Positions 1,724-30,520 of a stretch of 32,000 bases of DNA are shown in pieces. The position numbers and the translations under genes are program-made. Origin of the DNA: Candidatus Omnitrophota bacterium (lineage in GTDB: Bacteria > Omnitrophota > Gorgyraeia > Zapsychrales > JANLHA01); NCBI GenBank assembly GCA_963662715.1, contig OY759724.1:2880001-2912000 (forward strand), written 5' to 3'. Positions within the stretch are counted from its first letter, which is position 1. Every line of letters begins with the position of its first letter. The notes under the pieces are model-generated. The model had not been told where the DNA came from, did not search any database, and saw nothing but the letters and a program-made list of their open reading frames with translations.

Positions 1724-3232
1724 ATGAAACTCTCCTTAATTTTTAATCCGTTTTCCTATAAGGTTCATGAGGAAAATATAAGAGTCGTCCAGAAATATTT
1801 CGGACTGTTCCCGCCTTTGAGCCTCGCTTGGGTTGCTTCCATTGCCGAACAGGCGGGACACCAGGTTCAATTGGTTGATGCCCGCACTTTGAGACTTTCC
1901 ATGGAAGCCACGCTCGAAAAAGTCCGGGATTTTCAGCCGGACATCATGGGATTCATGATGACGACATATATGTTCCAGGACACGTTGCTTTGGATCAAGT
2001 TCCTTAAACAGCATCTAAATATCCCGGTTCTTATCGGCGGATACAATCTGAGAGTTTATCCCCGGGAGTCTCTTTCTCATCCGGAAATCGATTTTGGTGT
2101 TGTTGAACATGCGTATTACACCGTTCCCCGGCTTTTGGAAGAGCTTGAAAGCGGCCGGCGTGATTTCGATAAAGTGCCCGGCCTGGTTTATAAACGCAAC
2201 GGCCAGATCGTGGTCACGCCGCATCCGCAAAAAATAGAATTTGATAAGTTCCCCAACCCGGCCCGGCATCTTTTACCCAATGAGCTTTATGCGGAATTCC
2301 CTACGGAGCGGAGGAACTTTACCGTCATGGTGACATCTCTCGGCTGTCCGTATGGTTGTACATTTTGTGAGGCAGGCCAGACGCCGTACAATCCCCGTTC
2401 TCCGGAGACAGTGGTCGCTGAGATGGAAGAATGCTACCGGAACTACGGGATAAGGGAAATTGATATCTTTGATTATGAGTTTACGGGTATCCGCAACCGT
2501 GTCATGCGGATTTGTCAATTGATAAAAAAGAAAGAGCTGGATATTATCTGGGCCTGCCGTTCCCGGATTGATACCGTTGACCGGGAGCTTCTGAAAGAAA
2601 TGAAAGAAGCGGGATGCCGGCGAATATATTTTGGGGTGGAATCAGGCCGGCAGGAGCTCCTGGATAGAGTTCATAAAGGATATTCCATTGCCCAGATCAG
2701 GGACATTATCGCGGTGTGCTCTGATTTGGGTATCCGCACTCTGGGCTTCTTTCTTATAGGAGCTCCGGGGGATACCCGGGAAACCGTGAAGGACACGGTG
2801 GCCTTTGCAAAAACACTTGATTTGGACTATGTCCAGTTTTCCAAATGTCTGGCCAAACCGTTAACGCCTTTGTGGAAGGAGATGGTCGCCCAGGAAAAGA
2901 AGGATTATTGGCGGGACTGGATTCTGGGCCGGGAGGTGGATCGGGAGTTGCCCCGTCCGTGGACAGAATTAACAAATCAGGAAATAGACCGGTTGGCCCG
3001 CTGGGCGTACGTTTCATACTATGCCAGACCCTTTTTCCTCTGGAAGCATTTATGCAAAATAGCTTCGTTTTCTGAATTGAAAAGAAAAGTTTTTGCCTTG
3101 TTCGATATGGTTTTTAAACAGGAATCCTATTCTCGTCCGGATGCCCATTTCGTGGCTTTTAACGAGAATCCCGGAATGAAACTGACGAAATATCAGACGT
3201 CAAAGGGCTGCCCTGACGACGGGGGCTTATGA
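1724..3232 (+). CDS. B12-binding-domain radical SAM enzyme (class B-like)
   Basis: N-terminal Rossmann-like B12-binding-type segment FPPLSLAWVASIAEQAGHQVQLVDA ... VLIGGYN. CxxxCxxC cluster SLGCPYGCTFC (Cys codons about 2345-2368). YFGVESG motif. gagg upstream of the ATG. Confidence 0.9.
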   Translation: MKLSLIFNPFSYKVHEENIRVVQKYFGLFPPLSLAWVASIAEQAGHQVQLVDARTLRLSMEATLEKVRDFQPDIMGFMMTTYMFQDTLLWIKFLKQHLNIPVLIGGYNLRVYPRESLSHPEIDFGVVEHAYYTVPRLLEELESGRRDFDKVPGLVYKRNGQIVVTPHPQKIEFDKFPNPARHLLPNELYAEFPTERRNFTVMVTSLGCPYGCTFCEAGQTPYNPRSPETVVAEMEECYRNYGIREIDIFDYEFTGIRNRVMRICQLIKKKELDIIWACRSRIDTVDRELLKEMKEAGCRRIYFGVESGRQELLDRVHKGYSIAQIRDIIAVCSDLGIRTLGFFLIGAPGDTRETVKDTVAFAKTLDLDYVQFSKCLAKPLTPLWKEMVAQEKKDYWRDWILGREVDRELPRPWTELTNQEIDRLARWAYVSYYARPFFLWKHLCKIASFSELKRKVFALFDMVFKQESYSRPDAHFVAFNENPGMKLTKYQTSKGCPDDGGL

Positions 3233-4506
3233 TTTTTAGACCGATTCCAAGACAGAAATCTTCTAATTCCCTGAGCGACTTATGCCGTGTTTTTGAATTG
3301 ATGCGGGAGAAAGGTTTTTTTCAGGGCGAAGGCATCAGGGCGTTTGAAACAGAGTTCGCGCAGGCTTACGGCGTCAGACATGCCTTGGCGACGGGATCCT
3401 GCCGTTCGGCCTTCTCGCTGGCGCTTGATGCTTTAGGGATTCAAAGCGGGGACGAGGTGATACTGCCGGCCTTTAATATGCCGGCATTTCCAAAAATATT
3501 AAGATACAAGGGGATTAAACCGGTCTTTGTCGATATTCATGAAAGGACGCTTAATATTGACGAGACATTGATAGAGGAAAAGATTACCGCCCGGACCAGG
3601 GCCATTGTTGCGGTGCATTTGTTCGGCAACACGTGTCCCATGGACCGGATCATGACTTTGGCCCGAAAGCACCGGCTGGTTGTTATTGAGGACTGTGCCA
3701 ATGCTTTTAACACGCCGTATCAAGAACGTTTGGCCGGGACTTACGGTGACGTGGCGTGTTTTAGCCTGGGTTCGACAAAAGATATCCCCACATGGGGTGG
3801 CGGGGTCATTATTACGAATGATTCCGCCCTTTTCAGCAAATGCGTCGATCTGTATGAACGAAATTTTGTGTTCCCTTCTTGGACCGAAGTGACAAAAAAT
3901 CTTATTAAAGGAGCTTTGATGCAGTTGTTGTCATTGAAATTTTCTTATCTTCTGTTAATTTTTCCCATGAACCTTTTCTGTTCACTCGTTCATTTTGACC
4001 CTTTGGACTATGTGATTGAAGAGAAGGACCGGGAGATGAGTTGTCTTCCGCAAAAGAAATACACCAACTTTCAAGCGCTTATTGGAATAAACAAATTCCA
4101 AAAGAGCCGGTTTTTTCAGGAAAAGCGCGGCGCTAACGCCCGGATTTTAAACGACCGTTTGTCTGAATGCCCGGCCATTGTCACACCCGGGGTTCTTGAA
4201 GGCGGTAGCCACGCCTACTGGAATTATCCTCTGCTGGTCCCTTGCCGGAGGCCGTTTGTCCGGGCATTGTTACGGCACGGCATCGGGACAAAGACGATTG
4301 ACACTTATGACTGTAATGGATTGGATATCTTCCGGGAATACCGGCAGATGTGCCCCAAAACAGAAGAGGTGGCCCAAAAGATTTTGGTTCTTCCTGTTTA
4401 TCATCACTTGAATAAAAATGATGTGGAATTTATGGCCGCAATTCTTAAGAAGACATATTCTAAGCTGGCGCTCCAGGACCGGGGGGAGGGCTGCTCGGGG
4501 ACATGA
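3229..4506 (+). CDS. DegT/DnrJ/EryC1/StrS-family PLP-dependent aminotransferase
   Basis: FETEFAQAYGVRHALATGSCRSAFSLALDALGIQSGDEVILPAFN, VIEDCANAF and PLP-lysine context FSLGSTKDIPTWGGGVIITND. ATGA overlap with the upstream stop. Confidence 0.9.
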   Translation: MIFRPIPRQKSSNSLSDLCRVFELMREKGFFQGEGIRAFETEFAQAYGVRHALATGSCRSAFSLALDALGIQSGDEVILPAFNMPAFPKILRYKGIKPVFVDIHERTLNIDETLIEEKITARTRAIVAVHLFGNTCPMDRIMTLARKHRLVVIEDCANAFNTPYQERLAGTYGDVACFSLGSTKDIPTWGGGVIITNDSALFSKCVDLYERNFVFPSWTEVTKNLIKGALMQLLSLKFSYLLLIFPMNLFCSLVHFDPLDYVIEEKDREMSCLPQKKYTNFQALIGINKFQKSRFFQEKRGANARILNDRLSECPAIVTPGVLEGGSHAYWNYPLLVPCRRPFVRALLRHGIGTKTIDTYDCNGLDIFREYRQMCPKTEEVAQKILVLPVYHHLNKNDVEFMAAILKKTYSKLALQDRGEGCSGT

Positions 4507-7494: not shown

Positions 7495-8415
7495 ATGAAC
7501 ATCGCTTTTATGAAAAAAACACAAATCCTCCTGGCCCCGGCTCTGACCGCGGTTATTTTCGTGATCCTGTTCCGCTATATTTCTCTGACGGAGGTCGTCC
7601 GGATAACGAAAAATTGCCATATCAATATCCTTTTGTGGACTTTAGTGGTCTCGGCAGGGTCAAATATTTATATCAATGCCTTAAGATTTCAGAATATTTT
7701 AAGGCAGCTGGGAATCCCTCTTTCGCTTTTCGAAACAATACTGATCAAAGGGGGCGGTTCGCTGTTTAAAGTTTTTATGCCGGCCCGCAGCGGTGAATTC
7801 GTCATGATGGCTTACCTGAAACGGGTGAAAGACCTGTCTTATATCCAGTCCTTTTTTCTGATCATATCCGAATACATTCTCAACCTTTCGGCGCTGATCC
7901 TTTTTTTTCTTACAGGCTTCTTGTGGTCAATCAACCAGCCTGCTGTGAACCGGCATACCCTGGCCATGATTATTATGTTCCCCACGGAAGAAAATCCTTC
8001 TTCCCGGGGATTCCGGGCCGTTTTTCATAAATGGCTTCCGGATATTAAAGACAACGTCAGCCTTTTCCGCCGATTATGTTTCCGGAAAACCATTATTTTT
8101 TATACGCTGCTGTATATGGGAGCTGAAGTGCTGACATTTTATCTGTTGGCACACGCCCTGAACATTTTTATTCCTTTCGGTATTGTTCTCATGCTGATTC
8201 CGGCAGCCTTTTTGCTGAGCAGCCTTCCGCTCACTTTGGGAGGGCTGGGCCTGAGAGAGTGCGCCGTATTGTTTTTATTTTCATCCTATGCCCCGGCAGA
8301 AGAGCTGTTGTCTTTGGGCGTTCTTTATTCTTTTGTTGAAAACCTTTTCCCTTTGCTGATTAACGGATCTCTGTCCGGTCTTTTTCTTTCCAGGTTATTG
8401 AAAGGGGAGCAATGA
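7495..8415 (+). CDS. Flippase-like polytopic membrane protein (lysyl-PG synthase TM-region / UPF0104-like)
   Basis: Multiple hydrophobic helices. C-terminal signature SLPLTLGGLGLRECAVLFLF, typical of the LPG_synthase_TM family as I recall it. Confidence 0.65.
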   Translation: MNIAFMKKTQILLAPALTAVIFVILFRYISLTEVVRITKNCHINILLWTLVVSAGSNIYINALRFQNILRQLGIPLSLFETILIKGGGSLFKVFMPARSGEFVMMAYLKRVKDLSYIQSFFLIISEYILNLSALILFFLTGFLWSINQPAVNRHTLAMIIMFPTEENPSSRGFRAVFHKWLPDIKDNVSLFRRLCFRKTIIFYTLLYMGAEVLTFYLLAHALNIFIPFGIVLMLIPAAFLLSSLPLTLGGLGLRECAVLFLFSSYAPAEELLSLGVLYSFVENLFPLLINGSLSGLFLSRLLKGEQ

Positions 8416-9404
8416 TAAGTTATAAAAAAATTTTTCCAATTGTCGGACATATTTTGGCCGCTAAGATGTGTCATATCCCGTGCCCCCTGGCGGTCCGCTG
8501 GGCGTTAACTTATCGGTGCAATCAGCAGTGTTTGTATTGCGGTATCCCGCACCGGAAGGATTACTATGAATTGGATGCGGCCGGTATTTGCCGTATGCTG
8601 GATGATTTTGTGCGCCTGGGCACACAATGGATTTCTTTCTCCGGAGGGGAGCCTTTGCTCCGGGACGACCTTCCTGCGATTGTGAAGCATGCGAAAAAGC
8701 GGGGTTTTTTTGTGACACTCAGTACGAACGGAAGACTGCTGCCGGAAAAAATCCGGGATTTGCGATGTGTCGACCGCATCAAAATAAGCCTGGACGGCCC
8801 TCAAGATGTCCATGACCGCATCAAAGGCCAAGGGTCTTTTCAAAAGGTCATGGAGGCTTTGGCCTTATGTCAGGAACAGGCTATCCCGGTTGCTGTGGAT
8901 TGTGTCATTTCGAAATTCAACGCCGATGTCATTGAGGAATGTCTTGGGATCGCTGAGGCCCGTCATATCCCGATATCCTTTCAGCCGGCGACGATAAGGC
9001 GGTTGCCCCGGGATGAGGAGGAGGATTATCTGGTGCCGGCGGATAAATACAGAACGATTATAGAGCTTTTAATTGCCTTGAAAAAGAAGGGAGCCCGCAT
9101 AGAAAACTCCGTGGCCGGGTTGCGCCATCTTGGGCATTGGCCTGTTCCTCGGTCTATCCCGTGTTCCATGGGATTATTAAGTTATAATGTGGAACCCAAC
9201 GGGATCATCGGGGCTTGCATCGATAAATCCTATATTTATGTGGGGCGGGATGAATCGCAAGGGCAGGAGTCCCTTCGGACAATCTTAAAAAACGCGAAGC
9301 CGCCGTCTTCTTGCCGGGAATGCTGGTGCGGAGCTATGGTGGAATTTAACCTGATAAATTCTTTCAACCTGGATGCTATTTTTAATCGCATGAAATATTC
9401 ATGA
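8412..9404 (+). CDS. Radical SAM enzyme with C-terminal SPASM/twitch-like Cys cluster
   Basis: ALTYRCNQQCLYCG (CxxxCxxC) and FSGGEPLL. C-terminal Cys pattern PCSMG...GIIGAC...SSCRECWCG. ATGA overlap with the upstream gene. Confidence 0.85.
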   Translation: MISYKKIFPIVGHILAAKMCHIPCPLAVRWALTYRCNQQCLYCGIPHRKDYYELDAAGICRMLDDFVRLGTQWISFSGGEPLLRDDLPAIVKHAKKRGFFVTLSTNGRLLPEKIRDLRCVDRIKISLDGPQDVHDRIKGQGSFQKVMEALALCQEQAIPVAVDCVISKFNADVIEECLGIAEARHIPISFQPATIRRLPRDEEEDYLVPADKYRTIIELLIALKKKGARIENSVAGLRHLGHWPVPRSIPCSMGLLSYNVEPNGIIGACIDKSYIYVGRDESQGQESLRTILKNAKPPSSCRECWCGAMVEFNLINSFNLDAIFNRMKYS

Positions 9405-9445
9405 TCCGGATTTTTATCCATTAGCGGTCTATAGCCGATATTCTT

Positions 9446-10660
9446 ATGTTAAAAAAGTTTCCTAAAAGAAATATTTTTATATCCGAAAAAGAAATAAAAG
9501 CGGTATTGTCTTTTCTGTTTCGTCCGCGAGTCAGGGCTGAAGATTTTGTCAGAAAGTTTGAAGATAATTTCAGTCGGCACATCGGGGTAAAAGAGGCTAT
9601 CGCTGTCGGCTCGGGCCGGTTCGCTTTGTCTTTAATCCTGAGATCCCTGGGAGTGCAAAGAGGCGATGCTGTTTTACTCAGCGCCTATAACTTTACCGGT
9701 GTGCCCGAATCGTTACGGCAGGAGGGGGTGGAGCCTCATTTTGTTGACGCCGATCCGTCAACTTATCAAATGAACATCGATCTGATCCCGCAAAAAATCA
9801 CTGAAAAAACTAAAGTTCTCCTGGCCACGCATCTTTTCGGGCAGCTATCCGACACGGACCGGCTGGCGGATCTGGCCCGGGAAAATCACCTCTACCTCAT
9901 AGAAGATGCCGCGCAGGCTTTGGGAAGCTTTTATAAAAACAGGCCGGCAGGAACACGGGCCGATATCGGGCTGTTCAGTTTTACGGGCAGTAAATTGCTT
10001 AATACGTCCTGGGGTGGGATGATCGTTACAAACAACGCAGACTTAGCCGGAAAGATCCGTCAGGAGTTGTCCCGTTATCCTGCTCTCGGCACAGCCCAGG
10101 CCGTTTTCTTCAGGGTGAAAACTTATGCCTATGCTTTGGCGACCCAGCGTGCTTTTTACAGTTATCTGGTCTATCCTCTGACGGTGTTGTTTTATTTGTG
10201 CGGTATTGACCTTTTTGCGGCTTATAAAATGTTTGACCGCCGGGTGTCTCCCTACAAGAGGAACGGGCTGAATAATTTGCAGGGGTATCTGGGCCTCGAT
10301 CAGATGGACCGGCTTGAACAGTTTATAAAAAAGCGGAAAGAGTACGCCGGCAAACTTCTGGCCCAATTGGCCCCTGCGATATCTTTGCAGAAAGGCCCCC
10401 CGGACGCCGACCCGTGTTATTTTATGATCCCCCTGAAAGCAAAACACAAGGGGGAGGCCTATAAAAAACTGCTCCTTAAAGGGATTGACAGCAATATTCA
10501 GTATGCGGCCGATTGTTCGGGATTGACAGGGGTTCATAATCCGTGCGCAGCGGATTTATCCCAACATATTTTAACGATGAATTTGCCTTTGCGCATGAGT
10601 GATCAGGATATAAATTATATGGCGCAATCCATAAATGATTTAAAAGATATGTTAGAATGA
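9446..10660 (+). CDS. DegT/DnrJ/EryC1/StrS-family PLP-dependent aminotransferase (second paralogue)
   Basis: FEDNFSRHIGVKEAIAVGSGRFALSL, LIEDAAQALG and PLP-lysine context FSFTGSKLLNTSWGGMIVTNN. Confidence 0.88.
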   Translation: MLKKFPKRNIFISEKEIKAVLSFLFRPRVRAEDFVRKFEDNFSRHIGVKEAIAVGSGRFALSLILRSLGVQRGDAVLLSAYNFTGVPESLRQEGVEPHFVDADPSTYQMNIDLIPQKITEKTKVLLATHLFGQLSDTDRLADLARENHLYLIEDAAQALGSFYKNRPAGTRADIGLFSFTGSKLLNTSWGGMIVTNNADLAGKIRQELSRYPALGTAQAVFFRVKTYAYALATQRAFYSYLVYPLTVLFYLCGIDLFAAYKMFDRRVSPYKRNGLNNLQGYLGLDQMDRLEQFIKKRKEYAGKLLAQLAPAISLQKGPPDADPCYFMIPLKAKHKGEAYKKLLLKGIDSNIQYAADCSGLTGVHNPCAADLSQHILTMNLPLRMSDQDINYMAQSINDLKDMLE

Positions 10661-10781: not shown

Positions 10782-12068
10782 ATGACTAAAAAAGTTGAAA
10801 TGATTTTTTTGTTCCTTTGCTTCCTGGGGGCATTTTATTTGCGCCTCCAGGCGTCCCTGAATGTTCCCTATGCTTCCGATGAAACTCTTAAGATCCGCGT
10901 CGCGAAAGAAATTAACTTAAAGAATTTTGAGCTCCCTTTGGGTAATGAAGAAACGCATAATGGCCCTTTGCTGCTTTATGTGATGAAGGCGAGCATGAGT
11001 CTTTTAGGAGAAAACAGAATGGGGGTGCGTCTTCCGTCATTGATTTACAGTTTATTGACTTTGTGGCTTTTATATGTTTTGGTTAAGGAATCCCTGGATC
11101 AAAGAACGGCGATGTTGTCTCTGATTCTGCTGAGCCTGAGTCAGCTTCATATCGGCTTTACAAGAATTGTCGATGAAAACGGCTTCCTGATATTTTTTGT
11201 TGTCCTGACGCTTTTATTTATTCAAAAAGCCTTGCATGCCGGGCAAAAAAGATATATTTTTTTCGCAGGTTTATCCTTAGGGATGGGAAGCTTGGTGAAA
11301 GGCACCATGCTGACGATCCTTCCGGGAATCCTTTTATATCTCTGGCTGTATAAAGGACACCGCCACCCTTTCTCCGGCAGAGATATTTTGCTGTTTCTTA
11401 TAACCTGTGGGCTTGTCGTGTCTCCCAGTGTTTATTGGGACATGACTCACGGTTATACGGATTTTAAATATCATCTGGATAAATCAGGATTTTTTGCCTT
11501 CAGTTTTATTTCTTTGGCCCTTTTTTTGGGGGAATTATTTATATGGAACTTGCATTACATCGATGAGATATCGCTGTCGCAAATCGTGTCTTATGAATAT
11601 CCTTTTTGCAACTGGCTTATGGGGTTGATCTGTTTGGCGGGGGCGACATACTTTCTGAATAACAGAAAGAACGGGTTTACGGATTTGCTGTTGTGGATTT
11701 TTTGGTCTAATTTTATTTTTTTCTCTCTGGTCAGGTCAAACTCGGGAGGGGGGGCGGCTTTTCATCTGGATAATTTCTGGTGGGCTATTGTGGCTGTTAT
11801 CCCGGGTTTTATCCTGGGGGGAGCCTTTCTTGCGGATTTATGCCGGAGATACAAACCTGTACGATATTTCATCCTCCCGTTGATACTGATTTATTTTGGG
11901 ATAAACGGCATAAGTTTTGTCCGTTTCCCGGCCCTTTGCTGGATCCCCAACGATCGGGTAAAAATTTTGGAATTAAGTAAGACAGCCCAAAAGTACCGGG
12001 AGGAAGGTTTGCGGGAGGAAGCTTTAAAGGTGGAGCAATATATCCAGGGCCGATACTATGGTTTGTGA
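10782..12068 (+). CDS. GT-C fold membrane glycosyltransferase, GT39/ArnT (PMT_2)-like
   Basis: Polytopic hydrophobic protein. It has an acidic motif in the first extracytoplasmic loop (PYASDET) followed by a long helix bundle, the typical PMT_2 layout. Confidence 0.65.
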   Translation: MTKKVEMIFLFLCFLGAFYLRLQASLNVPYASDETLKIRVAKEINLKNFELPLGNEETHNGPLLLYVMKASMSLLGENRMGVRLPSLIYSLLTLWLLYVLVKESLDQRTAMLSLILLSLSQLHIGFTRIVDENGFLIFFVVLTLLFIQKALHAGQKRYIFFAGLSLGMGSLVKGTMLTILPGILLYLWLYKGHRHPFSGRDILLFLITCGLVVSPSVYWDMTHGYTDFKYHLDKSGFFAFSFISLALFLGELFIWNLHYIDEISLSQIVSYEYPFCNWLMGLICLAGATYFLNNRKNGFTDLLLWIFWSNFIFFSLVRSNSGGGAAFHLDNFWWAIVAVIPGFILGGAFLADLCRRYKPVRYFILPLILIYFGINGISFVRFPALCWIPNDRVKILELSKTAQKYREEGLREEALKVEQYIQGRYYGL

Positions 12069-13611
12069 AACAAAGACAATCAACATTTGGGATAAAAAGT
12101 TTATTTCTTGGATAACCGTTCTGTCTTTCGGAGTGTATATGTTCGGGACATACATTTTGAGCGTTCTCAGCCGTTCTGCATTTTTTGACGTATCTCTCTT
12201 CGGATCAAGCCAGGAAAACCCTGTCACGACCGTCATAAGCTTTCTTGTTTTCGGGGCCGGGTTCCTTATGCTTTTCATCCTTCCCGGGTGGATTTTTTCT
12301 CTTCATTTCAAGAGGTTGAAAAGCGATATGACGGTGTTTCTCGCTGTCTCCCTGGCGGCAAGTGTTATCGGCTTAATTTTTTCTGTGACGGTTTATAAAA
12401 TCATCGGAGGGGAGACGTTAAACAGGACGAATTTTCTTGTGATATTGATCATGCTTCTGGGCGCCGGCTTGATTTCCTTACGGGCGCGGTTCCCCCAGCA
12501 TAAAAACGCTCCGGGAGTGGCCCGGGTTTCCCTGCCCCGCATATCCGCTGTTTTCGTTTTTATCCTGATCCCTTTAATATTTCTTTCAACCTTGGGCCAT
12601 AAACTTATAGACGGGAAACCGGTGTCTTTTGATTACAGTCAAGAGGCTGTCCTGGCCATCCCCTTAGGACATCAGTCAGACGCTCTGGAAACATTCGGTT
12701 TGGCGCATAGCCTCAAAGACCGTATCCTGCCTTATTGGGATTTGGAGTATGCCGACACTTTTGGCTTCGCCTTCACTGATCCTCCGTTGTATCCGTTTCT
12801 TTGTCTGTTTGCCGTATTGCTTTTTGGAGAAAGTTTTGCCACATTGTCTCTGATGTCGGCGGGGTTTATTATCCTTATGTTTTTGTTTGTTTGGGGACAG
12901 GGAACCCGTCCGTCTCCTCTGCGTTTTTTTATCAGCCTCATGTTTATGCTGTCATATCTATATTTTTTCCGAAACAATACTGTCGTTTTTGTGCTGCTTG
13001 AACATTTTTTTATGCTGCTGATATTCCTGACCTATATTTTCCTGTTGCGGGAAAACTACGGAATATTTTTTGTGTTCGCAACTTTGGCAACTTTGACGAG
13101 ATTTTACGGTATTTTTTTTGTGTTGCTGGGATGGGGGGCCTGGGCTTTATTCTATAAAGACCGCAGGGATAAATCGTTCTGGATTCTGTCCCGGTACGGT
13201 TTTGTCGTGGCCGGTATCCTTTCCGGCGTGGCTTTCATCGGGGTTTTGACCGGACACCTGGACACGTATCTAAAATGCATTTTAATCGAACACTTTAACA
13301 GGCTGGATTATTTTTCCGCACTGTCGGGCATTTATCCGGGAAACGTTGTCTCCCTGCCGGCAGCCTCCTTGCGCCAGGGCGTGCAATTCCTGGCCTGGTG
13401 TTTATATAGTACTGTATTTACGTTCCCGGTTCTGATATATTTCAGTAAGAGCAGAGAGGAAAATTTTTATTCATTTATCTGTCTTGTTTACTGTTTTCTT
13501 GTCGTTTCCAGTAAATACAGTTTGCCTAGATATGTTATCCCGATGCTGCCTTTGGTGGCCATGATTTTTGCCAGTAAAGTTGAGCGGTTCATGGGAGCCG
13601 CTCTTCCCTAA
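12058..13611 (+). CDS. Polytopic integral membrane protein, possibly GT-C-fold transferase or polymerase
   Basis: At least 10 hydrophobic segments throughout. Overlaps the upstream stop by 11 nt. No catalytic motif that I can name. Confidence 0.55.
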   Translation: MVCETKTINIWDKKFISWITVLSFGVYMFGTYILSVLSRSAFFDVSLFGSSQENPVTTVISFLVFGAGFLMLFILPGWIFSLHFKRLKSDMTVFLAVSLAASVIGLIFSVTVYKIIGGETLNRTNFLVILIMLLGAGLISLRARFPQHKNAPGVARVSLPRISAVFVFILIPLIFLSTLGHKLIDGKPVSFDYSQEAVLAIPLGHQSDALETFGLAHSLKDRILPYWDLEYADTFGFAFTDPPLYPFLCLFAVLLFGESFATLSLMSAGFIILMFLFVWGQGTRPSPLRFFISLMFMLSYLYFFRNNTVVFVLLEHFFMLLIFLTYIFLLRENYGIFFVFATLATLTRFYGIFFVLLGWGAWALFYKDRRDKSFWILSRYGFVVAGILSGVAFIGVLTGHLDTYLKCILIEHFNRLDYFSALSGIYPGNVVSLPAASLRQGVQFLAWCLYSTVFTFPVLIYFSKSREENFYSFICLVYCFLVVSSKYSLPRYVIPMLPLVAMIFASKVERFMGAALP

Positions 13612-18317: not shown

Positions 18318-18350
18318 CCTCTTTTAAAATACGGAATCAAGACAATATTG

Positions 18351-19964
18351 ATGAACGATGCGACACTAAAAAAATTTATTGCGGCGGCCGTTTTGCTGTG
18401 CATGACATTTTTGATCTTTTTTCATCTGGGACATTATGCTTTCTGGGATGACGAAGCTATCTGCGCTTTATTCGCCAAATCACTTTTTGAGCATGGGGAT
18501 ACGAGCGCTGTTTCAGGTCATAATCTGATTGCCTTCAATGACGGCCGGGAACTGGAAAATCTTCATCAAAGATATGTCCCCCCGCTGCAGTTTTATTTTG
18601 CCGCTCCCTTTGTCGGGCAGGGAGGAGGCTCGACCTTCATCGCCCGGTTCCCTTTTGCTGTTTGCGGTTTGCTGACGGTTGCCGTTATTTTCCTCTGGCT
18701 TTGGAGAAGCCGTGCTCCAGTTTATACCTGGCTTTTGATGTCAGCCGGGATATTGGGAAACGTTTCCTTTATCCTCTCCTGTCGGCAATGCCGTTACTAT
18801 GCCCTGAGCATGCTCCTGACTGTTCTTCTGGCATTTTTATATTATTTTAGAACCCCCAAAAAACAGACCGTTTTGGCCATGGCAGGCGTGTCCTTGTTGC
18901 TTTTAGCTTCCAATTATTTGTGTTACGCGGCTGTTATGGGATGTTTGATCATGCATGACATCATCTGGGGCAGGAAGAGGCATGCCTCCAGCCGCTCGGA
19001 TATTCTCCTTTTCTGGGGTATGCAGCTTTTCCTCGGGGGCCTCATTGTTTTGACGTATAATCCTTTGGGAAAAAATGTCTGGGATATCTCCTCGGATTCC
19101 TGGCTCAGGAACAGAACAGCTTTATTCTTCTGGAATTTTCGTGATTTGAACAGCTGTGAAATGGGCGTGGGGATTCTTATCGCTTTGTGCCCTTTTTTGT
19201 ATTTTTACAAAAAAGACCGCCGTTTCCTGCAGTGTCCCGCTCTTATTGTGACATATATTTTGATCGTATCGTTATTCACCCCGCACCCTTTTGATATGCT
19301 GTGGGTCGCTTTTGTCCGTTATTTGTGTCCCTTAATCCCGCTCTGTATCTATACGGCTGTGCTGGTTATCCAGACTTTATCCGGGCACAGGCGCTGGCTG
19401 CTCATTCTTCTGGCTTTTCTGGCCTTCGGGACCAATGTTTTGCACGGAGGCCCGTTGACCAGGGTCAAACGGCACACAGCTTTCAGCCATGCCGTCGCTC
19501 ACGGACATTTCCGTTCGACGTTTGTTGAATATTTCAATGAATTGTTGACCGCAAGGCCCAATCCGTATCAATTAGTTTCTGACTGGATTAATGGCAACCT
19601 GCAGACCGGGGATACGGTCTGGGTCGTGCCGGGATACGCCAATTATCCTCTTATGTTTCACGCCCCCAAGGTTGTATATGCCTGGCAGCTCACGGAAAAA
19701 CAAGGGCAGTTTTCGAACCTGCCGGATATTCATTTTAAAGGTGAGGAATGGCCTGATTACATTATCGCTTTCGGCCCGAACCTTCTGGATGTTTTTGCAT
19801 TCTTTGAAAATAAAGAGGAGGCCTTTCCCTATGAAATGATCGATCAGATAAACATTTTTTGGTCATCCTTGACCCGTCCGGAACTTTTTTGGCATTCATT
19901 CCGTGAGATTGAGAATTATTCCCTTGCGACGGAAGCCATTTATATTTTTAAGTTTTCAGAATAA
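18351..19964 (+). CDS. GT-C fold membrane glycosyltransferase, GT39/ArnT (PMT_2)-like
   Basis: First-loop acidic motif FWDDEA followed by more than 10 hydrophobic helices and a soluble C-terminal domain. ATG at 18351 is preferred to the TTG at 18348. Confidence 0.7.
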   Translation: MNDATLKKFIAAAVLLCMTFLIFFHLGHYAFWDDEAICALFAKSLFEHGDTSAVSGHNLIAFNDGRELENLHQRYVPPLQFYFAAPFVGQGGGSTFIARFPFAVCGLLTVAVIFLWLWRSRAPVYTWLLMSAGILGNVSFILSCRQCRYYALSMLLTVLLAFLYYFRTPKKQTVLAMAGVSLLLLASNYLCYAAVMGCLIMHDIIWGRKRHASSRSDILLFWGMQLFLGGLIVLTYNPLGKNVWDISSDSWLRNRTALFFWNFRDLNSCEMGVGILIALCPFLYFYKKDRRFLQCPALIVTYILIVSLFTPHPFDMLWVAFVRYLCPLIPLCIYTAVLVIQTLSGHRRWLLILLAFLAFGTNVLHGGPLTRVKRHTAFSHAVAHGHFRSTFVEYFNELLTARPNPYQLVSDWINGNLQTGDTVWVVPGYANYPLMFHAPKVVYAWQLTEKQGQFSNLPDIHFKGEEWPDYIIAFGPNLLDVFAFFENKEEAFPYEMIDQINIFWSSLTRPELFWHSFREIENYSLATEAIYIFKFSE

Positions 19965-22582: not shown

Positions 22583-22855
22583 ATGTGGCACAATAAACTA
22601 TTTCGCTGGGCGATAATCCTCACGAGCCTGAACGTATTTATTGCGATGGGATTGTTCCTTGCCGGGCCGAAAGCCCCGGTACAAACGGTCACAGATGCCG
22701 ACGCCCAATGTGTGCGTTTCTATTTAGCCAGTTGTTCAGGAAACGGCTGTACACCCAGCTGCGGTGCTGGATCGGCGGTTAATACTGTTATTACCGGTTA
22801 CGTCAATGTTTACGGCGGACAGGCCCAGTACAGGACATCATTATGTTCACAATAA
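22583..22855 (+). CDS. Small (90 aa) membrane-anchored or secreted Cys/Gly/Ser/Thr-rich protein
   Basis: Strong SD aagggagg 6-7 nt before the ATG. N-terminal hydrophobic helix WAIILTSLNVFIAMGLFLAG. C-terminal CVRFYLASCSGNGCTPSCGAGS...SLCSQ with five Cys. Confidence 0.6.
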   Translation: MWHNKLFRWAIILTSLNVFIAMGLFLAGPKAPVQTVTDADAQCVRFYLASCSGNGCTPSCGAGSAVNTVITGYVNVYGGQAQYRTSLCSQ

Positions 22856-24947: not shown

Positions 24948-26927
24948 ATGAAACTGATCAAATTTCGTATCTATAATTACAAATCAATCATCGACAGCGG
25001 ATATTGTGACCTGTCCACGGATTTTACGATTCTTTTGGGAAAGAACGAGTCGGGAAAAACCGCGGTCCTGGAAGCCTTAAGGGATTTTGACAAACAGGTG
25101 GCGAATTTCCCGGAAGACGCTTTTCCTATCAGCGGTGATTATGAATCCCCGAAACTTGAAATGTGCTTTCAGGTTGATGAGGCGGAACTGGATGCGATTC
25201 AAGATTCAACGGGAATTAAATTGAAGGGAGCGCTCGCGGATTATCTCATTGAGAAAGGTTTGTCCCTGGAGAAAAACTGTACCGGCGAGTATTCTATTAA
25301 AGACGAGACCCTGCTTCGGTTATTAGATGAGGTGAACCAGGGCCAGCGTCACTATATCCGTAAAGAGGAAAAGAAGATAAGGGCGCTGTTGACGGGATAT
25401 TCGATCCCGGAGCTTGACCTGGAAGCCTCTGTCCCGGAAATCCAGGAACGTGTCCAGCAGCTATTCGTGACCATCAAATCCATTTTACCGCTGATCAAAG
25501 AGGAGGATATTCAGCAATCTGTTATAGAGGCTTTGCGTTTTATTAAGCAGGAATCCAAGGATTTATCGGAGCAGGAGAGTCAAGTCGATGCTAAGATGGC
25601 TTTTTTGGATAAAATTAAGGGCTTTTTGCCGCATTTTATTTTCTTTAACGAATTCAATGATATCCTGCCCTTTGAAATCCCCCTGCAGGAACTCAGCCGA
25701 AACCAGGCCGTGCTTGATTTTGCCAAGATTGCCCGTTTGGATATTGATAAAATTATCAACACGCAGGACACCCAGAAACGCATTAATATTCTGAACCATC
25801 ATTCTGCCGCTATCAGCGGGGAATTCCTGAATTTCTGGGGGCAGAACCAGATGGAGCTGATCATTCGTCCTGAAGGCGATAAACTGCTTTTCGGGGTCAA
25901 AGAGGCCAACAGGACGGAGCTGTTCAAAATCCAGCAACGAAGCAAAGGTTTTCAGTGGTTCCTGTCTTTCTATCTGAGGCTCAACAGCCAAAAAGGCGCC
26001 TCTAATGTCATTCTTATTGATGAGCCCGGGATGAACCTGCATGCCAAGGCCCAGAACGAAATTATAAAGGTCCTGGAGCATTTGACTCTGCACGGGAATC
26101 AAATTGTATTCAGCACCCATTCACCTTATCTTTTGGATGATCTTCGGCTGGACAGGATACGTCTTGTTCTTAAAGACCCGGCCAGCGGGACAGTTTTGGA
26201 GAGTAATTTAAGTATGGCTACCGACGATGAAACATTAACGCCTCTTATTTCCTTGTTTAAGCTGGGCCTTTCGCATCGTCTTTCCATGCTGGAAACCGGA
26301 AAAATAAATGTTATTGTTGACGGGCTTGCCAATTATTACTTCTTGGACGGGATGCAATGCTTTGATGAAAATGTCCCTTGGGCCGATTATCACTTCATCC
26401 CCGCTTCCGATATCTCTGAAATCCGGCAGATGGCGTCCTTGATGGTGGGCTCAAAAATGAATTTCCTGATTCTTCTGGATTTCAATCAGGATAGCGAAAA
26501 GCTTGCGAATATCCTGCAGGAAACATTGGGATTGGACGCGACACAGATTATCTTTATCAATGCCGCTCTTGATCAGAGAGTGGAGGACCTTTTTTCAAAA
26601 GAGGATTTCTGCAGAATTCTCATAGGCGAAGATCCGGACGAAGAAAGTACGCTGTCAAATTCGACTTATCTTAAGACGCACAATAAAAACCGTGTTTGGC
26701 TGGCGAAAAAATTTACGGATTTATCTCATAAAAAGGACAGGCTGCTTTTATCTCAGGAAACGTTATCTTCTTTCAGGCAGTTTATAAACCGTGTGTTCAG
26801 AAGCGGAGAAGATAATGCCCCACCTCAGGACAGGAAAGAAAAATCCTTGTTCTCAGAAATCAGGCGCTTTCCATTTTTCCCGAAATTCGGAAAACGGCCT
26901 GAACTTACACAAGACAGCAAAAAATAA
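24948..26927 (+). CDS. ABC/SMC-type AAA ATPase with C-terminal TOPRIM/DUF4435-like region (OLD / PARIS-AriAB-like)
   Basis: Walker A GKNESGKT. Signature-like QQRSKGFQWFLSF. Walker B VILIDEPG. H-loop FSTHSPYLL. Charged helical insert between Walker A and the signature. C-terminal INVIVDGLANYYFL ... FLILLDFNQDSEK. aggggag SD. Confidence 0.78.
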   Translation: MKLIKFRIYNYKSIIDSGYCDLSTDFTILLGKNESGKTAVLEALRDFDKQVANFPEDAFPISGDYESPKLEMCFQVDEAELDAIQDSTGIKLKGALADYLIEKGLSLEKNCTGEYSIKDETLLRLLDEVNQGQRHYIRKEEKKIRALLTGYSIPELDLEASVPEIQERVQQLFVTIKSILPLIKEEDIQQSVIEALRFIKQESKDLSEQESQVDAKMAFLDKIKGFLPHFIFFNEFNDILPFEIPLQELSRNQAVLDFAKIARLDIDKIINTQDTQKRINILNHHSAAISGEFLNFWGQNQMELIIRPEGDKLLFGVKEANRTELFKIQQRSKGFQWFLSFYLRLNSQKGASNVILIDEPGMNLHAKAQNEIIKVLEHLTLHGNQIVFSTHSPYLLDDLRLDRIRLVLKDPASGTVLESNLSMATDDETLTPLISLFKLGLSHRLSMLETGKINVIVDGLANYYFLDGMQCFDENVPWADYHFIPASDISEIRQMASLMVGSKMNFLILLDFNQDSEKLANILQETLGLDATQIIFINAALDQRVEDLFSKEDFCRILIGEDPDEESTLSNSTYLKTHNKNRVWLAKKFTDLSHKKDRLLLSQETLSSFRQFINRVFRSGEDNAPPQDRKEKSLFSEIRRFPFFPKFGKRPELTQDSKK

Positions 26928-27143: not shown

Positions 27144-27779
27144 ATGAAAAAATATAGAGCCATTCTCATTATTTCTGTCGTTTTTTTTAGCCTTTTAGGG
27201 TCTGCTGCTGCGGAAGCCGGAACTTATTACGAATTTATTCCTAGTCCTGATGCAGATTTAAATGACTTAGACCATTACAGATATAGTTTGTGGGGCATAA
27301 CCTGGACCGTGCCCAGTAATGAAGAGATTGTCGGCGCCACTTTTTATATTGACGACATCAATAACTGGGCCAATGAAGACAATGATCAGCTTTTTATCGG
27401 ACTTTTAGACAGCGCTCCAGCAGGTGTGACCACGTATTATGACGGTCAGGGGACAAGCAATGCCATAGAAACATATGCCGCAAATCATAGTATCGAATAT
27501 TGGCATTTAGACACTTATACAGATATAAATGATTATCCGGGGCCAAGCGAGGATTATGATTATATCTTCGATGAAGATGATTTGGCTCAACTCAACAGTT
27601 TCATTATTGATGGCCTCTGGGGCTTCGGCCTGGATGCTGATTGTCACTATTGGAACAACGGTGTTAAGTTTGTCATAGAAACTTCTCCTGTTGTGCCTGA
27701 ACCGGGAACTCTATCGCTGACTTTGTTAGGTGTTCTTTCAGGTTTTGGCCTTCAAAAACGGCGGAAGACGCATAGTTGA
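27144..27779 (+). CDS. Secreted PEP-CTERM sorting-domain protein
   Basis: N-terminal signal peptide MKKYRAILIISVVFFSLLGSAAAEA. C-terminal VPEPGTLSLTLLGVLSGFGLQKRRK, which is the PEP motif, a TM helix and a basic tail. aaggagg SD. Confidence 0.85.
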   Translation: MKKYRAILIISVVFFSLLGSAAAEAGTYYEFIPSPDADLNDLDHYRYSLWGITWTVPSNEEIVGATFYIDDINNWANEDNDQLFIGLLDSAPAGVTTYYDGQGTSNAIETYAANHSIEYWHLDTYTDINDYPGPSEDYDYIFDEDDLAQLNSFIIDGLWGFGLDADCHYWNNGVKFVIETSPVVPEPGTLSLTLLGVLSGFGLQKRRKTHS

Positions 27780-28385: not shown

Positions 28386-28444
28386 ACTCTTCCTGGAAGT
28401 TATTTCATCTCCTATGATTGAATTTTGAAATTTTTTTAAGGATC

Positions 28445-28873
28445 ATGTCTTCTATTCTCTTAAAAGTGCTTATCGTAGAAGATAATGCTGAACGCCAAAA
28501 AGTTCTCTGCCAGCTCTACAAAGATCATGCCTGGGTATTGGTGCATACGGCTGCACGGGCCATCAAGCTTCTCTCGGCCTTTCGTTTTGACCTGATTTCC
28601 CTTGATTATGATCTTGCGGGGGATGGAAAAGGCAGGGATGTCGCTTCTTATCTTGCGCAATCACCGCAACCGCACGGTAAAATTCTTATCCATTCCATGA
28701 ATGCCCCCGGGGCAGAAATCATAAAGGATTTATTACCGGAAGCCCAATACGTTCCTTTTTCCAGGATCATCAAGTCCAACACCGTTTTTAAAAAGATCCG
28801 GCAGGAATTGTCTCGGGGGATTGATATAAACTGGGATTATGTTTTCGGCCGTGAAGAGCCTCCTGCCGCATAA
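28445..28873 (+). CDS. Stand-alone divergent receiver (REC-fold) protein, cREC-like
   Basis: KVLIVEDN (beta1 acidic pair), DLISLDYDLAGDGKGRDVASYL and ILIHSMNAPGAEII. The conserved beta5 Lys appears absent (AQYVPFS). ATG 28445 is chosen over the TTG at 28418, and SD spacing is poor. Confidence 0.6.
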   Translation: MSSILLKVLIVEDNAERQKVLCQLYKDHAWVLVHTAARAIKLLSAFRFDLISLDYDLAGDGKGRDVASYLAQSPQPHGKILIHSMNAPGAEIIKDLLPEAQYVPFSRIIKSNTVFKKIRQELSRGIDINWDYVFGREEPPAA

Positions 28874-29981: not shown

Positions 29982-30410
29982 ATGAGATATTTGAAGCAAG
30001 GACACACAGTTTACTATGCCAGATACCATATTGTCATTTGTACAAGATATAGGCGAAAGATATTGCGATGGGGTTCGGCGGAGTATGTCAAAAGATGCGT
30101 TTTGGGAGTGATGAGACGGTATCCTGAGATCATCATTGAAAAAGTAAATACAGATTTAGATCATATGCATCTTTTGGCATCAATTCCGCCGAAGATGGCT
30201 GTAAGTCATGCAGTAAATCTGATTAAGAGTAACACAGCAAAGCTGATGAGGCGGCGATATAAGTTTTTAGACAAGATGTATGTGAAAAAGGCAGGGATAT
30301 GGTCAGCAGGGTATTTTGTGTCAACGGTTGGAGCCGACGAAGAATCGATAAAGCGATACATCGAATATCAAGGCCGGGAAGACCGAGGACAAACGCAGAT
30401 AGAATTTTAG
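29982..30410 (+). CDS. tnpA: IS200/IS605-family Y1 (HUH) transposase
   Basis: YHIVICTRYRRKIL, HUH motif DHMHLL and catalytic-Tyr context WSAGYFVSTVG. Typical length of 142 aa. Confidence 0.92.
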   Translation: MRYLKQGHTVYYARYHIVICTRYRRKILRWGSAEYVKRCVLGVMRRYPEIIIEKVNTDLDHMHLLASIPPKMAVSHAVNLIKSNTAKLMRRRYKFLDKMYVKKAGIWSAGYFVSTVGADEESIKRYIEYQGREDRGQTQIEF

Positions 30411-30461: not shown

Positions 30462-30520
30462 AGTTTCATGGTTTGTCATCGGTTTTGGGGCATTCCATGC
30501 TCGTAAAGGCATGAAATTTT

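Follow-up and report, generated by a model that had tools for sequence, protein, structure and literature searches.

Tandems of a radical SAM enzyme and an aminotransferase have so far come from a few antibiotic pathways, namely those of butirosin, blasticidin and mildiomycin, and desosamine. The logic of the desosamine pathway, in which DesI, DesII and DesV follow one another, is well established, and a radical SAM enzyme and DegT enzymes act there consecutively on one sugar. In the butirosin pathway the radical SAM enzyme BtrN, whose barrel is abridged, is partnered by BtrS, a DegT-family transaminase. A title cited in PMC11117688 names BlsE as a radical 1,2-diol dehydratase, and its homologue MilG is described in a preprint as providing a PLP aminotransferase with a 4'-oxo/3'-deoxy sugar (bioRxiv 10.64898/2026.02.25.707955).

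We analysed a 32-kb stretch of DNA (the window) in which the gene for a twitch-domain radical SAM enzyme precedes that for a DegT-family aminotransferase, here called DegT2; no literature specific to Omnitrophota radical SAM glycan clusters was found. We propose, with a probability of roughly 0.6, that these two enzymes carry out consecutive steps that aminate a sugar or cyclitol ring, a building block of the cell-envelope glycoconjugate made by their operon, and that they do so in place of the customary NAD-dependent reaction.

Organization of the locus

The gene pair and its surroundings are arranged as follows.

488 to 22127, + strand: the enclosing one-strand operon (ORF list and Pfam)
1724 to 4506, + strand: a second pair of radical SAM and DegT genes, with an HpnJ-like B12-radical SAM gene (1724-3232) overlapping DegT1 (3229-4506) (Pfam, NCBIfam)
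7495 to 8415, + strand: LPG_synthase_TM/flippase-like polytopic membrane protein, translationally coupled to the radical SAM gene (Pfam E = 6e-32)
8412 to 9404, + strand: twitch-domain radical SAM enzyme, 330 aa (Pfam Radical_SAM, PF04055, E = 4.5e-27)
9446 to 10660, + strand: DegT/DnrJ/EryC1-family PLP aminotransferase DegT2, 404 aa (Pfam DegT_DnrJ_EryC1, PF01041, E = 3.8e-59, 201 bits)

The preliminary description of this DNA had recognised a 330-aa radical SAM protein with a C-terminal cysteine cluster followed by a 404-aa DegT protein, and the open reading frames and Pfam bear this out; the gap between the genes measures 41 nt (9405-9445) and not the 42 nt given there. Both genes are real, with homologues at up to 57-59% identity and a GGGGAG ribosome-binding site before the radical SAM ATG at 8412; this ATG and the stop codon of the preceding flippase-like gene overlap in ATGA.

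Besides these genes and the two DegTs, the operon encodes a HEAT protein, five or more B12-radical SAM enzymes, a GT-C transferase (PMT_2), two unannotated polytopic membrane proteins, an AsnB-like amidotransferase, a GT2 with a C-terminal TM segment and a GT9. The B12-radical SAM enzymes resemble HpnJ (NCBIfam), the GT-C transferases show weak similarity to ArnT, and DegT1 retains its lysine (FSLGSTK) along with a hydrophobic insertion similar to that of DegT2. The pair formed by the B12-radical SAM gene and DegT1, and the core from the HEAT gene to AsnB, are syntenic in three related loci (L001, L207 and L210). With the Arn pathway (ArnA/ArnB/ArnC/ArnT) the operon shares a DegT aminotransferase, a small GT2 with a C-terminal TM segment, a GT-C and a flippase-type membrane protein. 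However, the window offers no equivalent of the NAD-dependent ArnA step, whose place is taken by radical SAM enzymes, and the operon has at least five additional B12-radical SAM enzymes.

The absence of a short-chain dehydrogenase (SDR) or 4,6-dehydratase gene from the locus, claimed at the outset, was upheld: a Pfam scan of the 32 kb, covering every ORF of at least 80 aa and the frame left open at the right end, detected no SDR/epimerase, 4,6-dehydratase or GFO-type oxidoreductase. There is no long open frame at the left end of the window, and an Rfam scan of the window gave no match. Outside the window, the 3.36-Mb genome could still encode an NAD-dependent enzyme that forms keto sugars.

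The twitch radical SAM enzyme

Two sets of cysteines define the putative metal sites of the 330-aa protein.

8517 to 8540, + strand: predicted radical SAM [4Fe-4S] site, C36-X3-C40-X2-C43 (invariant in 27 homologues)
9162 to 9323, + strand: twitch (half-SPASM) motif, C251-X12-G264-X4-C269 ... C301-X2-C304 (presumed to hold a single auxiliary Fe-S cluster)

Membership of the radical SAM superfamily is indicated by the CX3CX2C motif, the GGE motif for SAM binding and, in the AF2 model (pLDDT 88.8), a partial TIM-barrel core with six beta/alpha units. Among 27 homologues sharing 31-59% identity, C36, C40, C43, C251, C269 and C304 are invariant, as is the GGE motif (G78-G79-E80), while C301 and G264 are kept in at least 90%. 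The C-terminal cysteines lie in the contexts CSMG (C251), GAC (C269) and CRECWC (C301-C306). The last of these had been assigned whole to the auxiliary cluster; C301 and C304 are indeed conserved, but C306 is variable.

The enzyme had also been labelled Twitch/SPASM. The first half of the label is appropriate, as CX9-15GX4C and a later CX2C are conserved at the sequence level. The second half is not: Pfam SPASM (PF13186) gave no match on the 330-aa protein, and in place of the seven cysteines and two auxiliary clusters of a SPASM domain there are only four conserved C-terminal cysteines. The conserved signature, CX12GX4C...CX2C, therefore points to one twitch-type auxiliary-cluster site and not to a seven-cysteine SPASM domain; a weak profile match places its cysteines on the first half of the SPASM domain of CteB. 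Four conserved C-terminal cysteines in this pattern, as in redox-active twitch enzymes, count in favour of the amination proposal.

The DegT2 aminotransferase

DegT2 belongs to the fold-type I PLP family, as indicated by PF01041 and the SFxxxK lysine, and carries a subfamily-specific insertion.

9992 to 9994, + strand: codon of K183, in the motif FSFTGSK; this lysine, which forms the Schiff base with PLP, is invariant in an alignment of 29 DegTs
10079 to 10255, + strand: three-helix hydrophobic insertion of about 48 aa, at DegT2 residues ~212-270 (alignment and AF2 model)

The presence of Lys rather than His at position 183 argues for a transaminase and against a dehydratase of the ColD/E1 type. 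DegT2 falls in a tight Omnitrophota orthogroup at 39-57% identity, and among solved structures it is closest to perosamine synthase, to transaminases of sugars and of scyllo-inosose, and to ArnB; its solved relatives include 2-deoxy-scyllo-inosose aminotransferases (2c7t, E = 1.8e-30). Judged by its AF2 model (pLDDT 93.4), the enzyme keeps the standard sugar-aminotransferase fold, and Foldseek comparison with perosamine synthase, ArnB and PglE gave TMq values of 0.72-0.78, with ArnB at 0.78. In the alignment of 29 DegTs the insertion is common to every subfamily member, whereas ordinary DegTs are without it. In the model it forms helices at residues 216-233, 235-251 and 256-267, with a KD19 peak of 1.83 (range 0.6-2.3 across the subfamily).

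Genomic neighbourhoods and natural fusions

A search with a hand-built degenerate DNA pattern (FQP...NSxxGL[RK][HY]xxxWP) yielded 120 loci, whereas a contig scan with the generic motif [ST]GGEPLLRxD returned mostly PqqE/NirJ-type genes, with about 10 of 80 loci holding true full-length relatives. Clustered at 50% identity, the radical SAM family numbers about 500 clusters (496 representatives at E <= 1e-30). When single linkage was applied at 45% identity, most of the family stayed in one lump, from which DegT-linked clades were not separated.

The twitch gene is directly followed by DegT2 in all six orthologous loci, including one with an otherwise rearranged gene order (L209). In addition, we found two independent natural fusions with opposite domain orders, both involving the same radical SAM family. 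P0334 has the twitch radical SAM domain (residues 14-322, 37% identity) before DegT (362-727), and P0319 has DegT (24-398) before the twitch domain (421-728, 33% identity); each type occurs in several independent assemblies. A DegT is also fused to a different radical SAM enzyme in one locus (L084). Because relatives carry both enzymes in one protein, the twitch enzyme and DegT very probably work together, and the functional coupling of the twitch radical SAM enzyme and DegT2 is well supported. Fusion and adjacency are evidence of coupling and are silent on the order of the two enzymes.

In the wider twitch family the link is frequent yet not obligatory. Across 128 loci, DegT adjoins 28 of 167 family genes (17%) and lies within four genes in 54, so that 83% lack a DegT as direct neighbour and about two thirds lack one even within four genes. 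By a looser count, 32 of 192 twitch-labelled genes are DegT-adjacent, against 24.3 +/- 3.2 after within-locus shuffling of gene order, and 29 of 2000 shuffles reached the observed value. Supply of a ketone to DegT is therefore not the only role of the family. Tandem paralogues (44/167) and B12-radical SAM genes (35/167) are commoner neighbours than DegT; a flippase-like gene adjoins 18 of the 167.

These figures bear on the idea that the twitch enzyme tailors the same glycan or lipid intermediate in some other way, such as epimerisation, decarboxylation, contraction of the ring or formation of C-C or C-S bonds, and that the keto substrate of DegT2 comes from an enzyme whose gene lies elsewhere. 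The idea gains from the many family members without an adjacent DegT, from the fusion of a B12-radical SAM to a twitch domain (P0308), from SDR genes in some related loci (L086 and L208), and from the breadth of twitch/SPASM chemistry, since SkfB, MoaA and AbmM were all matched. Those SDR genes also weigh against the amination proposal, as does a DegT2 orthologue in L208 with no twitch gene within 10 kb. Nevertheless, the two independent fusions and the strict adjacency within the orthogroup favour consecutive steps, and the window encodes no alternative keto-forming enzyme. We regard such tailoring as rather unlikely and retain consecutive amination steps as the preferred reading.

Comparison with characterised radical SAM enzymes

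A comparison of profiles and structures, suggested in the preliminary description, brought out SkfB and CteB among the profiles, confined BtrN to a match of the core and gave BlsE as the best full-length fold. In Foldseek, BlsE (7vob) aligned with TM scores of 0.70/0.71 over 320 columns, and it was also the best single-sequence PDB match, at E = 2.6e-11 with only the core aligned. BlsE is the same size as our enzyme, and an orthologue fragment (P0253) carries CX13GX4C...CX2C, a spacing similar to CX12GX4C...CX2C. In the BlsE/MilG systems a PLP enzyme (BlsH/MilD) aminates the new ketone, and here too the radical SAM gene is followed by a PLP-family gene. Thus the fold and the twitch motif are those of BlsE and MilG, whereas sequence orthology and a nucleoside-antibiotic context are lacking: identity to BlsE is about 18%, similarity is confined to the radical SAM core, and hhalign of the family alignment against the BlsE orthologue fragment aligned the core alone, with a probability of 24%. 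The substrate of BlsE is a free nucleoside, cytosylglucuronic acid, and its gene belongs to a Streptomyces antibiotic cluster, whereas our gene lies in an envelope-glycan operon (GT-C, GT2, flippase-like protein) of an Omnitrophota-like genome, and no CGA synthase was found among the window ORFs.

The pair had originally been likened to BtrN and BtrS. That the two genes work as a unit, on a sugar-type substrate and not a peptide, is supported by the unbroken adjacency, the fusions, the lack of an NAD-dependent enzyme gene in the window and the lack of an RRE and of a conserved precursor peptide, and the radical SAM core, the presumed single four-cysteine auxiliary cluster and the DegT-family partner agree in outline with that system. 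Kinship with BtrN itself was not supported, its similarity being weaker even than that of BlsE: the family profile matched 4m7t over residues 27-117 only (E = 1.8e-6), BtrN was absent among the best 50 Foldseek matches, and its solved chain has ~270 residues, against 330 residues and a six-stranded core here. Nor did the window ORFs include a 2-deoxy-scyllo-inosose synthase or other aminoglycoside genes.

An order of the DesI/DesII type would instead have DegT1 or DegT2 make an amino sugar, from which the radical SAM enzyme deaminates or migrates the amine to leave a relocated ketone for the second DegT. Two DegTs and a single twitch enzyme are encoded in the window, several relatives show DegT-twitch-DegT arrangements (L002, L205 and L167/L200), fusions occur in both domain orders, and DesII is a fold match (8hzy, E = 5.5e-11). 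That match is weaker, however, with a TMq of 0.60 against 0.70 for BlsE, and DesII is larger, at about 490-510 residues. The pathway also requires an initial 4-keto-6-deoxy sugar, the product of a 4,6-dehydratase for which the window has no gene. DesII is not known to have an auxiliary (twitch) cluster, whereas the four twitch cysteines are conserved here. We consider this order improbable.

Could the enzyme be a maturase, similar to sactisynthases or anSME, acting on a ribosomal peptide or protein? The best PDB profile matches of the family are SkfB (E = 6e-29, covering the twitch cysteines) and CteB (E = 3.5e-26), SkfB and anSME recur with MoaA among the Foldseek matches, and many RiPP maturases appear among the sub-threshold NCBIfam matches. 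Against this, only about 25 residues precede the radical SAM core, leaving no RRE domain; the intergenic gaps of the operon are too small for a precursor; neighbourhoods are uniformly of glycan and lipid genes; the family includes DegT fusions; and every NCBIfam score is far under its curated cut-off. No conserved precursor peptide or small ORF was found in the operon's intergenic space or across 208 loci. The only cysteine-rich small ORF (22583-22855, 90 aa), 13 kb away with a signal-like N-terminus, was ruled out as a precursor, having no homologue in those 208 loci. A peptide-maturase role, which the preliminary description had offered as its alternative, is thus extremely unlikely.

Other sub-threshold NCBIfam matches were AhbC, NirJ, MoaA and HpnH, and the PDB matches of the family also included AbmM, MoaA and GDGT-MAS. 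These, the HpnJ-like B12-radical SAM enzymes of the operon and a GT2-YdjC-B12-radical SAM trio in related loci, similar to HpnI/K/J, would suit a cofactor- or lipid-directed enzyme like MoaA, NirJ/AhbC, HpnH or Tes/GDGT-MAS, with a nucleotide, tetrapyrrole or isoprenoid/alkyl chain as substrate. However, the scores are far under the family cut-offs (HpnH 57.7 against 225, MoaA 84 against 284), Pfam found no molybdopterin, haem or hopanoid-core genes near the twitch gene among the window ORFs, and the DegT fusions indicate a substrate bearing a carbonyl or an amine. Such a role is highly improbable.

Proposed function and implications

For the preferred reading, amination in consecutive steps, the following mechanism may be envisaged. 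SAM bound to the [4Fe-4S] cluster at C36/C40/C43 would generate a 5'-deoxyadenosyl radical, which would abstract hydrogen from a ring carbinol carbon. In one route, a BtrN-type dehydrogenation, the substrate radical would lose one electron to the auxiliary twitch cluster (C251/C269/C301/C304) and give a ketone. In the other, a BlsE-type 1,2-diol dehydration, the neighbouring hydroxyl would be eliminated and one electron returned, giving a deoxy-keto sugar. DegT2, with PLP on K183, would then convert the ketone to an amine. The radical chemistry may be a dehydrogenation (BtrN-like), a dehydration (BlsE-like) or a deamination (DesII-like). Since BlsE is the closest full-length structural analogue, dehydration followed by transamination is at least as likely as oxidation followed by transamination, and the predicted fold weakly favours dehydration.

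The hydrophobic helices inserted in DegT2, together with the flippase-like neighbour and GT-C transferases, suggest that this chemistry may be located at the membrane, with a lipid-linked intermediate as a possible substrate. The gene structures, motifs, folds, adjacencies and fusions are direct observations; the substrate, the formation of a ketone, the sequence of the two steps and their place at the membrane are inferences. More speculatively, Omnitrophota and some other anaerobes might possess an NAD-independent, radical SAM-driven route to amino sugars or aminocyclitols, operating at the membrane on lipid-anchored intermediates. The twitch enzyme, of a family not recognised before, would be complexed with a membrane-docking DegT subfamily, to which it is fused in some lineages, and, together with HpnJ-like B12-radical SAM enzymes, would replace the nucleotide-sugar dehydrogenase/dehydratase toolkit. 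This wider scheme is a tentative one, and we hold it to be doubtful as a whole.

In conclusion, the tandem logic known from antibiotic pathways is seen here in an uncharacterised radical SAM family, within operons for glycans or glycolipids of the cell envelope in an uncultured phylum. The natural twitch-DegT fusion proteins provide ready-made constructs for enzymology. If confirmed, the proposal would show radical chemistry at work in the primary biosynthesis of amino sugars by anaerobes and would supply glycoengineering with a new catalyst for tailoring sugars. It would also give a first functional handle on the surface-glycan loci of Omnitrophota, which are very rich in radical SAM enzymes.

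Coupling of the radical SAM and DegT genes

Both open reading frames of the preliminary description are present as claimed, separated by 41 nt and not by the 42 nt reported:

8412-9404, twitch radical SAM protein (rSAM), 330 aa
9446-10660, DegT2, DegT/DnrJ/EryC1 aminotransferase (Pfam, E 3.8e-59), 404 aa

The ATG at 8412 shares the sequence ATGA with the stop codon of the preceding gene and has a GGGGAG ribosome-binding site on its 5' side. The twitch rSAM matches Pfam Radical_SAM (E 4.5e-27), and all of its NCBIfam scores fall far under the curated cut-offs; the highest is to the PTO1314 family (107 bits vs a cut-off of 306), followed, again below cut-off, by AhbC, NirJ, MoaA and PqqE.

The pair lies in a one-strand operon (about 488-22127) that is syntenic with the orthologous operons of L001, L207 and L210. 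The shared order is HEAT, B12-rSAM, DegT1, B12-rSAM, B12-rSAM, flippase-like protein, twitch rSAM and DegT2, then GT-C, polytopic membrane protein, B12-rSAM and AsnB. The operon of L209 is otherwise rearranged (flippase-like, GT2, WbqC, B12-rSAM), as is that of L150, and twitch rSAM and DegT2 are still side by side there. The pair is therefore adjacent in 6/6 loci of the orthogroup.

Natural fusions within the same family are the strongest evidence for coupling. The protein P0334 (734 aa) begins with a twitch rSAM at residues 14-322, which shares 37% identity with that of the window, and continues with a DegT (362-727); in P0319 (737 aa) the DegT (24-398) comes first and the twitch rSAM (421-728) second. 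Neither has lost CX3CX2C, the PLP lysine or the twitch Cys, and each was seen in several independent assemblies. Since the fusions occur in both domain orders, they argue that twitch rSAM and DegT act consecutively on a single substrate, the two probably forming a complex. In a further fusion, P0308 (831 aa, encoded outside the window), a B12-rSAM is joined to a twitch rSAM; in another, from related locus L084 (12584-14770), the partner of the DegT is an unrelated rSAM that carries CX11GX4C. That the two genes are functionally coupled and act on a sugar-type substrate is well supported, and to this extent the BtrN/BtrS-like pairing proposed earlier holds.

Distribution and neighbourhood of the family

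The twitch rSAM family comprises 496 representative clusters (E<=1e-30; library of 1.84 billion proteins), mostly from Omnitrophota MAGs. Our wider census covered 167 family genes, spread over 128 loci. The loci were collected in a single genome scan, a single pattern scan of metagenomes and several look-ups of contigs, and neighbours were labelled by BLAST against annotated seeds.

Immediate neighbours of family genes in the census
Family paralogue: 44/167
B12-rSAM: 35/167
DegT: 28/167
Flippase-like protein: 18/167

A DegT gene was found no more than four genes away from 54 of the 167, DegT genes making up 5.7% of all genes in these loci. A short-chain dehydrogenase (SDR) gene was found within the same distance of 2/167, a count of low sensitivity because it rests on a single seed sequence. 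In a looser count of 192 twitch-labelled genes, 32 were DegT-adjacent against 24.3 +/- 3.2 expected when gene order was shuffled within loci, and 29 of 2000 shuffles reached the observed 32; the DegT-adjacent share of B12-rSAMs, for comparison, is 6.5%. The link of the family to DegT is real and enriched, though not obligatory. SDR genes are present in certain related loci (L086 and L208), and L208 has a DegT2 orthologue with no twitch gene inside 10 kb. A tailoring role, in which the twitch rSAM would not act consecutively with DegT2, is unlikely in view of the fusions and the adjacency of the pair.

Diversification of the family has given up to 4-5 paralogues in one locus. Tandem arrays of 3-5 copies per locus occur at several positions (L083, L115, L145, L160, L164 and L170), often interspersed with DegT, GDSL-lipase-like and AsnB-like genes. 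Omnitrophota loci L208 (5516-11221) and L083 (18084-20733) also contain GT2-YdjC-B12-rSAM trios, that of L208 adjoining the DegT2 orthologue and two SDR genes. These trios are similar to the hopanoid HpnI/HpnK/HpnJ cyclitol-ether module and, by analogy, might possibly serve cyclitol-type head groups.

Auxiliary cluster and fold of the radical SAM protein

In an alignment of 27 homologues (31-59% identity), C36, C40, C43, C251, C269 and C304 are invariant, and C301 and G264 are kept in at least 90%. Of the C-terminal Cys cluster noted earlier, C306, the last Cys of its "CRECWC" element, is not conserved. The retained positions therefore define the signature CX12GX4C...CX2C, a twitch (half-SPASM) site for one predicted auxiliary cluster and not a seven-Cys SPASM domain. 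The protein has no Pfam match to the SPASM model. A C-terminal profile weakly matches the twitch Cys to the SPASM domain of CteB, in its first half. A four-Cys auxiliary site would fit an electron-accepting or electron-returning role.

AF2 modelled the protein with confidence (pLDDT 88.8). In a Foldseek search against the PDB, SkfB and BlsE were the top two matches (each E ~3e-14), BlsE giving the best full-length fold match (TM 0.70/0.71, 320 columns); MoaA, SuiB, CteB, anSME, viperins and DesII ranked lower. BlsE was also best in a single-sequence PDB search (E 2.6e-11, alignment confined to the core), and a family-profile search placed SkfB (E 6e-29, twitch Cys covered) and CteB first. The supposed kinship to BtrN found no such support: BtrN aligned with the family profile over residues 27-117 only (E 1.8e-6) and is not among the best 50 Foldseek PDB matches.

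BlsE was originally reported as a decarboxylase, probably with two clusters (PMC3715490), and later, going by a title cited in PMC11117688, as a radical 1,2-diol dehydration catalyst. Its homologue MilG reportedly makes a 4'-oxo/3'-deoxy sugar that is then aminated by a PLP aminotransferase (bioRxiv 10.64898/2026.02.25.707955). The same twitch signature is seen in P0253, a fragment from the C-terminus of a BlsE orthologue. There, CX13GX4C is 132 residues beyond SLDG (125 for the counterpart in the window protein), and the later CX2C is a further 44 residues on (31 in the window protein).

DegT2 and its insertion

DegT2 falls in a tight subfamily of Omnitrophota proteins with 39-57% identity over full length, outside which identity is at most 34% and coverage is mostly of the N-terminal domain. 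K183 is invariant, and most of the fold is similar to perosamine synthase, ArnB and PglE. The remainder is an insertion of ~48 aa, shared by the DegT2 subfamily, DegT1 (the second DegT of the operon) and the fused DegTs, and not found in ordinary DegTs or in solved DegT structures:

10079-10255, DegT2 insertion, residues ~212-270, three helices, confident in the AF2 model
DegT1 insertion, residues ~225-270, hydrophobic

The insertion is hydrophobic, with a KD19 maximum of 1.83 in DegT2 and 2.2 in P0319 and a range of 0.6-2.3 in the subfamily; in most members it is not a clear transmembrane segment. It might serve as a lid for membrane docking or lipid binding.

Operon context

The operon also encodes an LPG_synthase_TM flippase-like protein, GT-C (PMT_2, ArnT-like) transferases, an AsnB-like amidotransferase, GT9 and a small GT2 with a C-terminal TM segment, together with:

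1724-3232, HpnJ-like B12-rSAM (174 bits to NCBIfam HpnJ, under the cut-off of 577)
3229-4506, DegT1
12058-13611, polytopic membrane protein, 517 aa, kept in syntenic operons
18348-19964, polytopic membrane protein, 538 aa

The first two form a second rSAM-DegT pair (1724-4506) with a 4-nt overlap, and DegT1 overlaps the following B12-rSAM by another 4 nt. Across related loci no protein is better conserved than the upstream B12-rSAM, which has 62-80% identity in L001, L003 and L086. The two polytopic proteins have ~10 hydrophobic segments each and match nothing in Pfam or NCBIfam; they are possibly new transferases of GT-C-like type, polymerases or ligases. Given the insertion of the DegTs and the membrane partners in the operon, we infer that the pair acts at the membrane or on a lipid-linked substrate.

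As described earlier, no SDR or 4,6-dehydratase gene occurs anywhere in the 32-kb window, nor does any other oxidoreductase gene. The alternative of a peptide maturase has lost ground: there is no RRE, and no intergenic space of the operon is large enough for a precursor peptide. The sole Cys-rich small ORF (22583-22855, 90 aa, between GT9 and the second PMT_2-like gene), with its hydrophobic N-terminus and Cys-rich C-terminal half, has no Pfam match and no homologue among 208 related loci. A peptide, cofactor or lipid role for the twitch rSAM is very improbable.

Further right in the window lie:

24948-26927, stand-alone OLD/AbiLi/AriA-like AAA_15-AAA_21 ATPase (PADLOC AbiLi E 4.6e-23, Old E 8e-23), just downstream of the glycan locus, which may be a defence gene
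27144-27779, PEP-CTERM-tagged protein
28418-28873, cREC_REC receiver-domain protein
29982-30410, IS200-type Y1 transposase
30479-32000, sixth B12-radical SAM gene, extending past the right end of the window

Proposed chemistry

The simplest chemistry for an rSAM and an aminotransferase would make the carbonyl first and transaminate it second. We put at about 0.6 the probability that the twitch rSAM forms a ketone which DegT2 aminates. Precedents for such partnerships are dehydrogenation in BtrN/BtrS, diol dehydration in BlsE/BlsH, and amination, radical deamination and renewed amination in DesI/DesII/DesV. The DesII-type order, with DesII itself among the lower fold matches, is distinctly improbable. 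If the twitch rSAM is ketone-forming, dehydrogenation, the oxidation suggested in the preliminary description, and dehydration are roughly equal in likelihood; resemblance in fold and motif tips the balance slightly towards a BlsE-like enzyme. The twitch rSAM family is uncharacterised, and while the pathway logic is known, its setting is new: an envelope-glycan operon of Omnitrophota-like anaerobes.
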